This document shows, one piece after another, positions 1-32,130 of a stretch of 63,456 nt of DNA. The stretch covers positions 1 through 63,456 of the forward strand of contig CAZQSL010000005.1 in the NCBI GenBank assembly GCA_964595945.1. Direction: 5' to 3'. The DNA is from an uncultured bacterium. Lineage in GTDB: Bacteria; UBP15; UBA6099; JAJRTR01. The translations under genes and the position numbers were made by a program. The notes under the pieces were generated by a model. It did no database searches. It was given only the letters and a program-made list of their open reading frames with translations, and was not told the origin of the DNA. How positions within the stretch are numbered: position 1 is the first letter of the stretch; the number at the start of each line of letters is the position of its first letter.

Positions 1-53
1 AGACCCCATTTTTTCAAAAAGGGGGTCTCCATGCTCTTGTCGTGAACGCTTAC
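1..53. repeat. Right arm of a palindromic MITE/REP-like element, truncated by the window edge
   Basis: 9-53 TTTTTTCAAAAAGGGGGTCTCCATGCTCTTGTCGTGAACGCTTAC matches 9764-9809 apart from one A; ends in the CGTGAACGCTTAC terminal motif. Confidence 0.85.
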
Positions 54-108: not shown

Positions 109-1275
109 TCAGGCTTCGCGTTGGAAAAGTCCGGCTGCGCCCATGCCGCCGCCGATGCACATGGAGACGACGCCGTATTTTTTGCCGGAGTCCTTGAGTG
201 CGTAGATGATCTGGGTGGCGAGTTTTGCGCCGGTGCAGCCGAGCGGGTGGCCGAGTGCGATGGCGCCGCCGTTGACATTGACTTTGGATGTGTCGAGGCC
301 GAGTTCGCTGACGCAGTAGATGGACTGGCAGGCGAAGGCTTCGTTGATTTCGTAGAAGTCGATGTCGTCTTTGGTGAGGCCTGCTTTTTCGAGTAGTTTC
401 GGGATGGCGAATTTGGGGCCGACGCCCATTTCATCGGGGTTGACGCCGACGGTGGTATAGGCTTTGAATACGGCGAGGGGTTTGAGGCCGAGAGCTTCGG
501 CTTTTTCGCGGCTCATGATGAGGACGGCTGCGGCGCCATCGTTCATGGGAGAGGAGTTGCCGGCGGTGGCGGAGCCGCCCTGTTTGAAGGCGGGTTTGAG
601 TTTTGCGAGGCCTTCGAGAGTGGTGTCTGGGCGGGGGCATTCGTCGGTGTCGAAGGTGACTTCTTCCCAGCCTGCGCCTTTGGGCACGCGGGCGGTGACG
701 GGGACGATTTGTTCTTTGAAGGCGCCTTTTTCGATAGCCGCGACGGCTTTCATGTGGCTGTTGTAGGCGAATTCGTCTTGAGCTTCGCGGGTGATGCCGT
801 AGCGTTCGATGACGTTTTCGGCTGTGAGGCCCATGGGGATGTATGCTTCGGGGAATTCTTCGACGAGGCGAAGGTTGATTTCGGGGGTGAAGCCGCCCAT
901 GGGGACAGCGCTCATGGATTCGGCGCCGCCGGCGATGGCGATGTCGAGTGAGCCGGAGTTGATCTTGGCGGCTGCGATGGCGATTGCTTCGAGGCCTGAG
1001 GCGCAGAACCGGTTGACGGTCATGGCTGATGTTTCGACGGGGAGGCCGGCGCACAGGGAAGCAATGCGGGCGAGGTTCATGCCCATCTGGCCTTCGGGCA
1101 TGGCGCAACCGAGGATGACATCTTCGATTTCTGTTTTGTCTATTCCGGCTCTATTGATCACTTCATTTATGACTATGGCGGCGAGATCGTCTGCTCTTGT
1201 TTCGCGAAGGGTGCCTTTTTTGGCTCTTCCCACCGCGGTTCTTGCCGCTGCAACTATTACCGCATCTCTATTCAT
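109..1275 (-). CDS. fadA: Acetyl-CoA C-acyltransferase (thiolase)
   Basis: NRFCASG (active Cys), [13 protein letters not shown] and CIGGGMG motifs; ATG 1275 behind GGAGG; follows the FadN-type gene. Confidence 0.95.
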
Positions 1276-1323
1276 GAAATCCTCCATTGGACTCAATAAA
1301 GTGTAGTTTCCGCCTCCGTGTCA

Positions 1324-8895: not shown

Positions 8896-9330
8896 TCAGG
8901 CTTCGCATTGTGTAGCGCTTTCGTCTTCGGACAAACCATTAGGCCCCTTGCTCTGCCTGGCGATTGTTTTCAGACAGTTTTCGAGGTCGTCAAGGTCGCA
9001 AGGTTTGCTCATGAATCTGTTGGCGCCTGACAGATATGCGCTCAGCTTGTCATTGGTGCTGTCCCGGACGGTGAGCATGACGATGATCGCACGGCGCGCC
9101 TTTTCCGAAGACCTGATCAGACGGCTTGCTTCATACCCGTTTTTGACGGGCATCATTACGTCCATAAATACAACATCCGGCGTCTCTCTCTCAGCGACTT
9201 CCACGGCCTGATCCCCGTTTTTTGCCTCGTAAACGGTATGGCCTTTTTCCCTGAGAAAGTCTCCGAAAACGTCCCTTATGTCATCGTCATCGTCGACGAG
9301 CAGTATCCTGAGGTTATTGTCTTCTGTCAT
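8896..9330 (-). CDS. Single-domain response regulator
   Basis: ILLVDDD, FMDVMMP (phospho-Asp), MLT, FMSKP. Confidence 0.92.
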   Translation of the reverse strand: MTEDNNLRILLVDDDDDIRDVFGDFLREKGHTVYEAKNGDQAVEVAERETPDVVFMDVMMPVKNGYEASRLIRSSEKARRAIIVMLTVRDSTNDKLSAYLSGANRFMSKPCDLDDLENCLKTIARQSKGPNGLSEDESATQCEA

Positions 9331-9496
9331 AGGTTAGCTCTGGCTAAATTATAGCAGTTTTTTTTTCACTTTCAATGCACTTATATTACAATTAACCTTG
9401 ATTTGAGCCTTATGTTGCAGATATTTGTAGATTTTCAGCAATATGGTTTGTCAAAATGGACAAAATGGCACTGGGGATATGGCAGGGGAAATCATA

Positions 9497-9809
9497 GTAA
9501 CCGTTTACGGGAATACCCGCGGAGAACCTTTTCTTGTAACCGTTCACGGAAGTGGGAAACCCCTTTTTATAAAAAGGGGTTTCCCACACCCTTCCCTAAA
9601 AATTTTCATCGCATAACCGCTTCTCCCCGGCCAGTGGCGGAAAAAATGCCGCCACTGGCCGGGAAAATCAGGGAAAAAACCAAACATAGAGAGTTTTTGG
9701 GAGAGGTGCGGAGAACCTTTTTTTCAAAAAAGGTTCTCCGCGGGTATTCCGTGAACAGTTACCTTTTTTCAAAAAAGGGGGTCTCCATGCTCTTGTCGTG
9801 AACGCTTAC
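9497..9809. mobile_element. Nested non-autonomous MITE-like element: 227-bp inner copy (9536-9762) inside a related element
   Basis: Inner 16-bp TIRs GTAAC(C/T)GTTCACGGAA flanked by CTT on both sides; three internal hairpins; outer ends GTAACCGTTTACGG (9497) and CGTGAACGCTTAC (9809); no transposase in the window. Confidence 0.75.
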
Positions 9810-9812
9810 AAA

Positions 9813-10748
9813 TCATACAACCGGCATGGCGCCTTTCCGGACCCCTCTGGCGGCGAGGTCGGCAAGATGCAGGCATGCGGCGGTATTGTTGGCGGTCGTC
9901 GCGGCGACATCGCCCGGATTGGCCCACATGAAAATATTCCAAAGGCTCGCCGGCAGATGGCGCGCCATGCCCATGGGGCCGATTTCCAGCAGGATGCCGA
10001 GCACATCGCGCTCGTAGTACAGCCAGTCATTGATGTCACCATAAGTGAGATAAAGCTCGTTGTCGGGATGAGTCTTGTAGGGATGGGGCTGTAGAGCGGC
10101 CATGCCGCCAGTGATGGATTTGTACAGGCCGGCGTCGGGACATACTGACTTGTTGTGACACGGGGGCCAGCAGATTTTTTCACCAAAGCTGTGAAGTGCG
10201 AGCGAAATCGAAGGTCGTGCCATATCGACGAGCCGCACGAGCGCCAGAGACTCGGGTTCGGACAGAGGTGACGGCCCGTGATAGTTTATAGTTTTTTTGT
10301 GACTGCCCGCCATGACGCCGCCGACGTGAGGTTCGTAAAACCCGACAGGGAAGTTGCGATTGATGTCGACGCGATTGGCATTGGTTTTCACAAGTGGTAT
10401 GAGATGCTTTCCGAGCAGCCGGCAGACCTTGTCGTGACCATCAGGATTCATCACCGGGAAAAACCATATTTTGACCTTTTCGAGCAGATCGCGGCGCTCC
10501 GACGCGAGCGAACGCGCTATTGCGAGGCACTGCTCGGTGGCAATGAATTCTATGGCATGGCACTGCGCGATATAGATGATGGCCGGAGCGCCGGCTGAAG
10601 GTCCCGCACTCCATGCCCTGAGCGGCCGGCCCTGCACTGATGCTCCGAGCGTGACACTCGCGCCGCCGCAGCCCTTTACGATCAGTTCGTCGAACTCTGT
10701 GTAGATTTCTTCAGCCGTGTGATATGGGCCGTATTTTTTGATATTCAT
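9813..10748 (-). CDS. M14 family zinc carboxypeptidase
   Basis: HAIEF (HxxE), PVMNPDG, NRVDINRNFP, SEPES, LHSFG, LEIGP; ATG 10748 behind GGAG. Confidence 0.88.
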   Translation of the reverse strand: MNIKKYGPYHTAEEIYTEFDELIVKGCGGASVTLGASVQGRPLRAWSAGPSAGAPAIIYIAQCHAIEFIATEQCLAIARSLASERRDLLEKVKIWFFPVMNPDGHDKVCRLLGKHLIPLVKTNANRVDINRNFPVGFYEPHVGGVMAGSHKKTINYHGPSPLSEPESLALVRLVDMARPSISLALHSFGEKICWPPCHNKSVCPDAGLYKSITGGMAALQPHPYKTHPDNELYLTYGDINDWLYYERDVLGILLEIGPMGMARHLPASLWNIFMWANPGDVAATTANNTAACLHLADLAARGVRKGAMPVV

Positions 10749-10983
10749 ACAGTCACTCCGGTTGTGTCGTCCCTGCCGCATAGTCTGCCCGATGATAACA
10801 CGGCAGTGGCGGTCCTCACAATGTCCCGTAAAATCCTGTTGCATTGCTGCAATATCTGACTCGAAAGCTATAGTGTCTTTGATGATATGGCAACTATTGC
10901 GACAAGTATGAAGAGTCCCTTCATGTGTAATATAAAGAACTCCGGAAATCCTAAATATATACAATGGTTTGGATTATTTCTGA

Positions 10984-13803: not shown

Positions 13804-14760
13804 ATGAAAGCGGCGGATAAACCCGAAAACACACGACGCAGGCGCACACCGGACAGTCATCGCGAATACCAGTCGGCGCAGGCATTTTTCGGTGACTACA
13901 TCATGCCCCTGCCACCTGTACGCATCGCGTTCAACGACTGGTGCTTCCGCAATTCCATCCGCCTCGGGGCGCTCAAACCCGAAGACATCATATTCCTCGC
14001 CGGCTGCTTCGGCGTCGACGGCCTCAGCATCGACTACTTCCTGATGACACGCGACATGAAGCGCAATCTGCGCCGCGTACGCGAATCCATCGACACCTGC
14101 GATCTCGACATCGTCATGGGCTACAGCCTGCCCTTCGCGCTCCCGCGACTCTGCCACCGCATCTTCGACCCGCGCAAGGAAGAAATGTTCAACATCGCTC
14201 ACGAACTCGGCACCGATACCATCCGCATCATCGGAGGCATAGTCATCCCCAGCCCATACACGGCCCCCATCCACTTCACTGTCGATCGTAATCAGGAAAT
14301 ATTCGACGTCTCCCGCCGCATCAGGGAATTCACCCGCTACGCACGCCTCGAAGGCATTACAGTCGCACTCGAAACGCGCGGCGAATACACCACCCGCGAA
14401 ATCCTCGAAATCATCGACCGTGTCGACGAGCCCAACTTCCGCGTCACATTTGACACGTCATATCCGCTCCTTCACCACGAAGACCCCATCGAAGCCATCA
14501 TGAAACTCTCGCTCTTCATATCATTTGTCCATGTCAAGGATATACGCCGCGATCAGTCACTGATCACTCAGGTGCCGCTCGGCACCGGCGAAGTCCCCCT
14601 CCGTGAAATCATCCACACACTTCGCGAACGCAACTACGACGGGCTCTACAGCATCGAGTTTTTCCTCGCCCCATGGAAAACCGCCGACGAAGAGGCTACC
14701 CTCCGCGAAAGCATCTTTTTCCTCGAATCCATCACGGACGACGCTCCGGCACTTCCCTGA
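13804..14760 (+). CDS. Sugar-phosphate isomerase/epimerase (AP endonuclease family 2 TIM barrel)
   Basis: Metal-ligand pattern ALETR / TFDTSY / VHVKD / SIEF; VPLGTGEVP. Confidence 0.8.
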   Translation: MKAADKPENTRRRRTPDSHREYQSAQAFFGDYIMPLPPVRIAFNDWCFRNSIRLGALKPEDIIFLAGCFGVDGLSIDYFLMTRDMKRNLRRVRESIDTCDLDIVMGYSLPFALPRLCHRIFDPRKEEMFNIAHELGTDTIRIIGGIVIPSPYTAPIHFTVDRNQEIFDVSRRIREFTRYARLEGITVALETRGEYTTREILEIIDRVDEPNFRVTFDTSYPLLHHEDPIEAIMKLSLFISFVHVKDIRRDQSLITQVPLGTGEVPLREIIHTLRERNYDGLYSIEFFLAPWKTADEEATLRESIFFLESITDDAPALP

Positions 14761-14805
14761 AGACAGGCTGGAAGTGTAATCCCGATTCTGCGTGTTAGCT
14801 GCCCG

Positions 14806-15942
14806 TCAACTGGCCGGGCGGGATTTTGCGTAGATGTCGTCGATGATCCGCATCAGCGCGAGGCCGTCTTCGCCGGTTGCGGCGAAATCGGGGCCAAGCC
14901 CGAAGTAGTCGGTGTCGTTGCCAAGTATTTTATCCGTGAAATACCGCATCTGCATATTGTGCATGTATATGGCGCGCGTAGCCGGGACCGGTACGGGGAG
15001 GCCGATGCCGGTGTACGGTGACAGCGGGCCAAATTTCTGCACAAGAGTCGGGATATTGTGATAAAAAGGCAGCCCGAACCACATGCCATTGATGTGGGAA
15101 AAACGGACCGAACTCCTGTCGCCATATATCCAGCCATTTTCACCGATGAGATTGTTGGCCATGGCGGTCATGTTCATTTCGGATGTCGCAATGATGCCGC
15201 TGGGAAATTTCATGGTGACCGCGCCCTGATCCTCAAATACCATGTCGGAGCGTTTCACGCTGATATGCCCACCCCATTCCGACGGCTTTTCGCCAGCGAA
15301 GTAGAGTACGAGGTCCATGAGGTGAGTGCCCATTTCGAGCAGTTGCCCGCCGCCGGTGCGTGTGTCGGACATCCGCCACAAGCCGAGTTTTTCCTTCATG
15401 TTGACACCGAGCGATTCGGCCCAGCGAAATATCGTTTCATAGAGCGGCCCGTCGAGGCTTGGCGCTATGCTGATCGAGGTGGTATTGATCTGCGACACGT
15501 TGCCGAGATCACCGCTGGCAGCCATTTTTTTGATCGTGTTGATGCCGCGGTCAAATCGTTTGACCATCCCCATCTGCAAGGTCACGCCGGCAGCCGCGCA
15601 TGCTTCGACCATTTCCTGCGCTTCGGCCGCGCTGACGGCCATCGGTTTTTCGCAAAACACGTTGATGCCCCGAGCTGCTGCGGCAAGCGTGAGCTCGCGG
15701 TGTACCCAGTTGGGCGTACAGATCAGCACTCCGTCTGGCTGCGCGCTTTCCATCATCTCGACAGCATCTGCAAATTCTGCCGGTATGTCGAATTTCCGGC
15801 AGACTTCCGCGCGGTTTTTTTCGCTGATGTCGACGACAGCTACGACTTCGGCATTTTTGTTTGTCTTCAGGTAAGGCAAGTGTCCTTCGCGCGCGATGCG
15901 GCCGCATCCGATTATGCCGATCTTCGCTTTTCTGTTCTTCAT
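14806..15942 (-). CDS. Gfo/Idh/MocA oxidoreductase
   Basis: IGIIGCGRIA, CTPNWVH, VFCEKPMA, GGQLLEMGTH. Confidence 0.92.
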   Translation of the reverse strand: MKNRKAKIGIIGCGRIAREGHLPYLKTNKNAEVVAVVDISEKNRAEVCRKFDIPAEFADAVEMMESAQPDGVLICTPNWVHRELTLAAAARGINVFCEKPMAVSAAEAQEMVEACAAAGVTLQMGMVKRFDRGINTIKKMAASGDLGNVSQINTTSISIAPSLDGPLYETIFRWAESLGVNMKEKLGLWRMSDTRTGGGQLLEMGTHLMDLVLYFAGEKPSEWGGHISVKRSDMVFEDQGAVTMKFPSGIIATSEMNMTAMANNLIGENGWIYGDRSSVRFSHINGMWFGLPFYHNIPTLVQKFGPLSPYTGIGLPVPVPATRAIYMHNMQMRYFTDKILGNDTDYFGLGPDFAATGEDGLALMRIIDDIYAKSRPAS

Positions 15943-31817: not shown

Positions 31818-31891
31818 GGCAAGGTAGCTCAGTTGGTCAGAGCACGCGGCTCATACCCGCGGCGTCGTCGGTTCAAATCCGACCCTTGCTA
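31818..31891 (+). tRNA. tRNA-Met (CAT), probably elongator; CCA not encoded
   Basis: GGCAAGG/CCTTGCT acceptor stem, AGCTCAGTTGGTCAGAGC D-arm, CGCGG-ctCATac-CCGCG anticodon arm, GTTCAAATCC T-loop. Confidence 0.93.
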
Positions 31892-32078: not shown

Positions 32079-32130
32079 AGTTTTTTGGAAGAGGTGCGGA
32101 GAAACCTTTTTTTCAAAAAAGGTTTCTCCG
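32079..32130. repeat. Partial copy of the palindromic element family
   Basis: Aligns to about 9692-9740; hairpin CGGAGAAACCTTTTTT-TC-AAAAAAGGTTTCTCCG. Confidence 0.8.

Follow-up and report, generated by a model that had tools for sequence, protein, structure and literature searches.

Insertion sequences of the IS66 family have inverted repeats (IRs) of 20-30 bp that start with GTAAGCG, and they have 8-bp direct repeats (PMC11946415). ISPsk01 has the IR GTAAGCGTCCGG... and both ISPa75 and ISPsy43 have the IR GTAACCGTCCGGGCA; passenger-carrying IS66 elements have also been documented (PMC12888890). ISDge4, a member of the ISBst12 group, has the IR GTAACTGCTCAGCA and an 8-bp direct repeat (PMC12898284). 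On the Geobacillus plasmid pHTA426, positions 14107-15741 contain a single-ORF element that encodes a PF03050 transposase (218 bits) between the IRs GTATCTATTCAGCCC and GTAACTATTCAGCCC, with the duplication GACGAGTT. Transposase elements on viral contigs (L103, L109, L110, L111/L112, and L116) are bounded by GTAACT[AG][TC]TCAG, with duplications that are 8 bp and perfect, and in an element from a metagenome (L119) the ends are GTAACTATTCAG and the duplication is ATAAAAAG. This last element, 1583 bp long and of the ISBst12 group, is found on four metagenome contigs (L119-L122) with flanks that are permuted among ATAAAAAG, AGAAGTTC, and CACCTTTT, indicating that three insertion sites were cross-joined during assembly.

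We found that a block of repeats from an uncultured bacterium resembles these elements at its ends. The block is in the window, by which we mean the whole stretch of 63,456 nucleotides that was analysed, and lies within a 480-bp gap between two genes on the minus strand, one for a response regulator (8896-9330) and one for an M14 zinc carboxypeptidase (9813-10964). The initial annotation had described non-coding, nested elements with TIRs, one of them in the hairpin loop of another family member, and had been unable to assign them to a known IS family. The nested arrangement is borne out by the element boundaries and by paralogues (below). A family can now be proposed as well. Based on the ends, GTAA[C/G]nGTT[C/T]ACG, and the 8-bp duplications, which match the IS66 family and its ISBst12 group, we conclude that the region probably consists of two MITEs of the IS66-family, ISBst12-group type, one nested in the other (with a probability of roughly 0.8). 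The elements are small, non-coding, and multicopy, with TIRs that start with GTAA(C/G) and a duplication of 8 bp.

We compared the two elements to the described systems that are closest to them. In the ISBst12 group (ISBst12, ISDge4, and the ISGka4-like element of pHTA426), the IRs start with GTAAC(T/C)(A/G)(T/C)TCA and the duplication is 8 bp, similar to the window. In contrast to that group, the two elements of the window, at 78 and 227 bp, encode nothing, and their ends have ...GTTCACG in place of the ...TTCAG of the sampled ISs. The best of the sampled ends was the IRR of L109 (GTAACTGTTCAGTCGG), which has 11 of its first 12 bases in common with the inner IRR of the window (GTAACTGTTCACGG). 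None of the sampled IS66-family transposase elements had ends that were exactly GTAA[CG]CGTTCAC[GA]G; all read ...TCAG. The three-ORF IS66 elements (IS66, IS679, ISPsk01, and ISPa75) have IR heads, GTAAGCGT and the GTACCGT-type GTAACCGT, that correspond to the window-end variants GTAAGCGTTCACG and GTAACCGTTCACG, and their direct repeat is 8 bp as in the window. They differ in that the window elements have no similarity to them past the first 8-9 bases and lack tnpA, tnpB, and tnpC. Correia elements (CREE) from Neisseria are also small, gene-less, TIR-bounded, multicopy, and intergenic at the ends of genes, and their transcripts can likewise form long hairpins. Correia elements duplicate TA and have TIRs of 26 bp, whereas the window duplication is 8 bp and the window TIRs start with GTAA and are unrelated in sequence to those of Correia.

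The initial annotation found no transposase in the window, and our searches agree: the ~24 large ORFs compared to Pfam, and tblastn with IS66 transposase and RAYT sequences, were all negative. There was no IS66 transposase in the 100 loci that we fetched, and none next to the IR matches, where the 10 neighbouring ORFs were all housekeeping genes. A literature search for the exact end sequences returned only unrelated primer matches.

The outer element is a 78-bp foldback (39 + 47 - 8 bp) with a type A arm on the left and a type B arm on the right. In its left arm (9497-9535, plus strand), the terminal IR GTAACCGTTTACGG precedes the stem GCGGAGAACC. Its right arm (9763-9809, plus strand) starts with CTTTTTTC and the stem GGGGGTCTCC and reaches the terminal IR CGTGAACGCTTAC after a spacer. 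The outer ends, at 9497 and 9809, are GTAACCGTTTACG and the reverse complement of GTAAGCGTTCACG, and immediately outside them are two identical copies of AAATCATA (9489-9496 and 9810-9817).

The inner element (9536-9762, plus strand) is a long-form MITE of 227 bp. From left to right, it has a 16-nt IRL (9536-9551), hairpin C (9552-9587; a perfect 18+18 palindrome), a left box ACCCTTCCCTAAAAA (9588-9611), a central GC hairpin (9626-9663; 15-bp stem 9626-9640 / 9649-9663), a right box GTTTTTGGGAGAGGT that is the inverted counterpart of the left box (9686-9707), hairpin A (9708-9741; 16-bp stem 9708-9723 / 9726-9741), and a 16-nt IRR with one mismatch to the IRL (9747-9762). The C and A arms align over ~75 nt. 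Each is a complete hairpin plus box, with the central GC hairpin between them, and the linkers form 40-nt arms (9562-9601 / 9694-9733) that are 75% complementary. When folded as ssDNA, 9489-9817 forms a nested structure of -87.7 kcal/mol, compared to -41.5 +/- 3.4 kcal/mol for 100 shuffled sequences (z = -13.6). In both source metagenomes, other copies omit 9636-9670 and have CAG instead, joining 9635 to 9671, and thus the central 15-bp GC hairpin of the window copy looks like a local palindromic expansion.

The repeats listed in the initial annotation (TIRs, CTT at 9533-9535 and 9763-9765, palindrome, stems, linkers, and outer ends) are all present. The 8-bp repeat of AAATCATA, a perfect 23-nt inverted repeat (9510-9532 / 9728-9750), and the 8-bp context of the CTT were not part of it. 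The 23-nt inverted repeat shows that the left arm of the outer element and the right arm of the inner element belong to one subtype. The structure had been called fully symmetric, and this is true loosely but not strictly: the arm subtypes differ, A and B in the outer element and C and A in the inner one. We aligned the five arms in the window, those starting at 9497 and 9536 and the reverse complements from 9762, 9809, and 53. All five begin with GTAA[CG]nGTT[CT]AC and have an invariant tip, GTAA..GTT.AC.G, followed by a stem of 10-12 bp and a T-run/A-run centre. The stems (GCGGAGAACC, CGGAGAAACC, GGAGACCCC, and GTGGGAAACCCC) differ by subtype and are always perfectly paired.

We found that the target-site duplication is 8 bp. 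The initial annotation had proposed a 3-bp duplication from the CTT that flanks the inner element on the left and on the right. Both CTTs are there, as part of an imperfect 8-bp repeat, CTTTTCTT (9528-9535, inside the outer left arm) and CTTTTTTC (9763-9770, inside the outer right arm), that matches at 6 of 8 positions in a T-rich context in which chance similarity is high. Duplications could be scored for two insertion events of the window family. That of the outer element, AAATCATA, is perfect (8/8), with a chance of ~1.5e-5 at fixed positions. For the other event, removal of the inner element with one 8-bp copy leaves GAGAAC-CTTTTTTC-AAAAAAGG, which is the normal loop of the family; the loop predicted for the outer element without the inner insertion is CCTTTTTTCAAAAAAGG. 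In contrast, the 3-bp model would leave a T-rich run of 11-12 nt that is present in no uninterrupted copy. That is, only an 8-bp duplication of CTTTTTTC restores the loop.

Elements from other MAGs that are bounded by the same kind of ends (GTAA[CG]nGTTCAC) also had 8-bp duplications. These elements came from a scan of contigs with the pattern AAAAAGG-N8-30-CGTGAACNSTTAC, in which most of the matches listed were due to chance. Among the matches listed, L071, L014, L003, L016, L043, and L002 had perfect 8-bp duplications. The six duplicated sequences, among the matches listed, were unrelated to each other (CATGGAGC, GCAATTTG, CGAGTAAG, CTTGCAAC, AATGCGTC, and AAATTTTC), and the duplications of two further listed matches, L008 and L092, matched at 7 of 8 positions. 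Scans of metagenome contigs with the type-B 20-mer and with a module-plus-IR pattern gave 0 matches each.

The components of the block are multicopy. We aligned Logan contigs from the two source metagenomes to the region and summed their depth. The type-B arm had a summed depth of 492-634 (9784-9798), compared to 4.8-6.8 in the unique flanks, and the depth collapsed at 9809-9813. In the two source metagenomes, the type-B right arm was thus ~75-130x single-copy depth, a value that, as a sum over contigs, is not an exact copy number and reads only as tens to ~100 copy-equivalents. The positions at which other copies diverge into different flanks are exactly 9497, 9536, 9762, and 9809. One metagenome contig matches from exactly 9536 onward and has a different left flank. 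A second metagenome copy of the outer left arm, also with a different flank, starts exactly at 9497 and continues uninterrupted (...AACCTTTT|TTGCAAAAA). Other short-form paralogues are uninterrupted as well (...TCACGGAATACCCGCAGAGAACCTTTTATA|CAAAAAAGGGGG and ...GCGGAGAACCT|TTTTTTCAAAAAAGGGGG), and the inner insertion can be compared to these copies as paralogous empty sites. The initial annotation had suggested looking for empty sites with a single CTT. Uninterrupted copies do exist, but their loop fits an 8-bp duplication and not the single-CTT form.

In contrast to the components, the junctions of the nesting (9535/9536 and 9762/9763) had the depth of single-copy sequence in both source metagenomes, indicating that the nesting is unique to this locus and probably arose in place. 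It is unlikely that the 313-bp structure moved as one composite, either nested elsewhere beforehand or as a single MITE with internal duplications. Movement as a unit would fit with only the outer duplication being perfect and the inner one being 6/8, and with arm types being shuffled among copies. A composite does not fit with two single-copy junctions between multicopy components, with the existence of uninterrupted short forms, or with the independent copy of the inner left arm that begins exactly at 9536.

We propose that two insertions gave rise to the nested IS66-type MITEs; which of them came first, and a transposase that works in trans, are what we infer. In a first step, a foldback MITE of 78 bp, with arms A and B and the ends GTAACCGTTTACG...CGTGAACGCTTAC, would have inserted at AAATCATA, overlapping the stop codon of the M14 gene and duplicating the 8-mer. 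In a second step, a 227-bp long-form member of the family (arms C and A) would have inserted into CTTTTTTC in the loop of the first element and duplicated that 8-mer, and the left copy of the inner duplication would have acquired two substitutions afterwards. A putative IS66-family DDE transposase, encoded elsewhere, might act in trans and bind the terminal 13-16 bp. The element would be joined to target cuts that are staggered by 8 bp, and repair would give the duplication.

The initial annotation also suggested that the element targets its own copies. Insertion into a family member holds, but a preference for family members does not follow from it. Chance alone would be expected to place an occasional copy inside another when ~100 of them are restricted to intergenic DNA. 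The window has one nested event, and at one MAG locus (L003) a copy has inserted at the tip of a second one.

It is possible to imagine that the repeats are palindromes of the REP/BIME or REPIN type, spread by a RAYT (an HUH Y1 enzyme) and not by a DDE transposase. As in those systems, hairpin repeats in the window are stacked as inverted pairs downstream of genes, and the hairpin units pile up at the 3' ends of genes as REPs do. In addition, a 1095-bp element in a Planctomycetota MAG (L002), with GTAACCGTTCACGG ends, encloses a RAYT gene whose product scores 74.7 bits on NF047646 and has TnpArep (4er8) as its best PDB match. This element (L002:5105-6199) has the perfect duplication AAATTTTC, and its RAYT gene is seemingly interrupted by a short internal repeat. 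We rejected a RAYT as the mobiliser and consider it very unlikely. None of the four RAYT homologues examined (L096-L099) had GTAA ends (0/4), and three of them, from further Planctomycetota contigs (L097-L099), were flanked by hairpins with a GTGGTGC head. Y1 transposition yields no target duplication, whereas perfect 8-bp duplications are the rule for the same-ended elements. REPs have a GT[AG]G head and no duplication, whereas the window has 8-bp duplications and IS66-type tips; no GT[AG]G head is found beside the hairpins, and the 12-20 nt between GTAA and the stem contain no REP head. The window itself had no RAYT by tblastn. L002 has GTGGTGC hairpins inside its GTAA ends, and because of this and the lack of a target duplication in Y1 transposition, its RAYT looks like a passenger. 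That is, the L002 element looks like an IS66-type vehicle that carries a REP/RAYT unit, and the passenger-carrying forms of the three-ORF IS66 elements fit with this.

PATEs, which derive from IS200/IS605 elements, lack TIRs and target duplications, have subterminal hairpins, and insert beside a fixed tetra- or pentanucleotide. The TIRs and the variable 8-bp duplications do not fit with an element of this kind.

Two nested MITEs also fit the assembly data better than an artefact does. The window is from a short-read MAG, and a repeat graph resolved along a tandem or chimeric path might have created the structure. Unitigs do break inside the region, and ~9700-9726 is covered only by high-copy k-mers, with no unique span. 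Nonetheless, one unitig contains the unique left flank through 9581 with no differences, the unitigs 9571-9645, 9616-9700, and 9726-9799 tile the remainder, and 9784-10400 joins the unique right flank. The path was identical in two runs, and the perfect 8-bp duplication on both unique flanks ties the two ends to one insertion. A tandem misassembly, a concern raised in the initial annotation, is therefore highly improbable.

It is scarcely credible that the repeats are immobile structural or regulatory hairpins selected by the host (as a terminator, an insulator, or a triplex-forming box): stems that vary by subtype and stay perfectly paired, and a copy without GTAA ends at 32079-32130, would fit with this notion, but no intrinsic terminator was found in the scan described below, the duplications and sharp boundaries show that the IR-bounded units came by transposition, and a MITE could have a hairpin function and still be a MITE.

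We examined the neighbouring genes and found that the outer MITE left the M14 protein unchanged. The TGA stop codon of this gene (9813-9815, minus strand) is inside the right copy of AAATCATA, and this copy still supplies the stop. The gene runs straight into the element, indicating that the M14 3' UTR is probably highly structured through the MITE hairpins. The M14 ORF is 383 aa from a TTG start and the database product is 343 aa, which makes a start further downstream probable. The response-regulator gene is preceded, outside the repeat block, by a near-consensus promoter-like site with an extended -10 (TTGAAA-16-TGnTATAAT, 11/12; 9375-9348, minus strand), ~120 nt from the left end of the outer MITE. 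In the one metatranscriptome examined, a single contig of 241 nt was inside the response-regulator gene and no contig was on the MITE block.

A scan for intrinsic (rho-independent) terminators found none on either strand from 9250 to 9900; the T and A runs are inside stems and not 3' of a GC-rich stem. Comparisons of the repeat region to Rfam gave only sub-threshold chance matches, to plastid 3'UTR and miRNA hairpin families, and in the whole window only one tRNA and the 16S rRNA were above threshold. Two nested MITEs explain a structured block of 313 bp that might otherwise invite a reading as an sRNA, a terminator, or a riboswitch. For annotation, the family of repeats is now classified and the length of its duplication corrected.

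We also looked for the orthologous locus in other genomes. No relative was close enough to provide an orthologous empty site; the nearest M14 homologue was only 59% identical, and a search with the response-regulator protein found it only on one Logan contig of 1.2 kb. Based on the M14 comparison, the lineage is poorly sampled. The element is ordinary in kind, in a poorly sampled bacterium. At a depth of ~75-130 single-copy equivalents, the family probably contributes to the fragmentation of short-read assemblies of this uncultured lineage.

Related modules are present elsewhere in the window. A type-B arm that is cut by the start of the window (1-53, plus strand) is 55 nt downstream of the stop codon of a thiolase-like gene (109-1296, minus strand), and 16-53 matches 9772-9809 at all 38 nt (100% identity). 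A box-plus-hairpin module that has no GTAA ends and is not bounded by IRs (32079-32130, plus strand; box AAAGTTTTTTGGAAGAGGT, stem CGGAGAAACC and its complement) is between a tRNA (31818-31891) and a galT-like gene. Its stem has one A:T pair more than 9708-9741. Further copies of this module in the metagenomes have the same right tail, GGTAGATAATTTCAAATAAT, indicating that the module is a repeat family of its own, related to the arms of the MITEs.

Ends that read GTAA[CG]CGTTCAC[GA]G, with unrelated interiors and 8-bp duplications, were found in the lineage of the window and in MAGs labelled Planctomycetota/Pirellulales, Deltaproteobacteria, and Thermodesulfobacteriaceae. Tentatively, an undescribed IS66 subgroup may serve these elements. 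Separately, and equally doubtful, the box-plus-hairpin module may be an independent unit that IS66-type ends captured repeatedly. Such a module could bind a protein or act as a hairpin in RNA or DNA, and its capture could be analogous to the apparent capture of a RAYT and REPs in L002. The recurrence of a 15-bp end across several labelled lineages and the variant that carries a RAYT are modest leads for the biology of IS66 elements.

In a Deltaproteobacteria MAG (JALTHV01), we found a family of ~169-bp MITEs (L003:287-620, L008, L016, L001, and L026). The duplications of these MITEs are perfect and 8 bp long, and their TIRs are ~50 nt and start with GTAACTGTTCACG. One copy in L003 is inserted at the very tip of its neighbour, and 5 nt from the start of the neighbour's IR are part of the duplication, CGAGTAAG. 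A subterminal sequence in the JALTHV01 family, CCCCGGCCAGCGGTAGCC, resembles the arms of the central hairpin (9626-9663) in the window.
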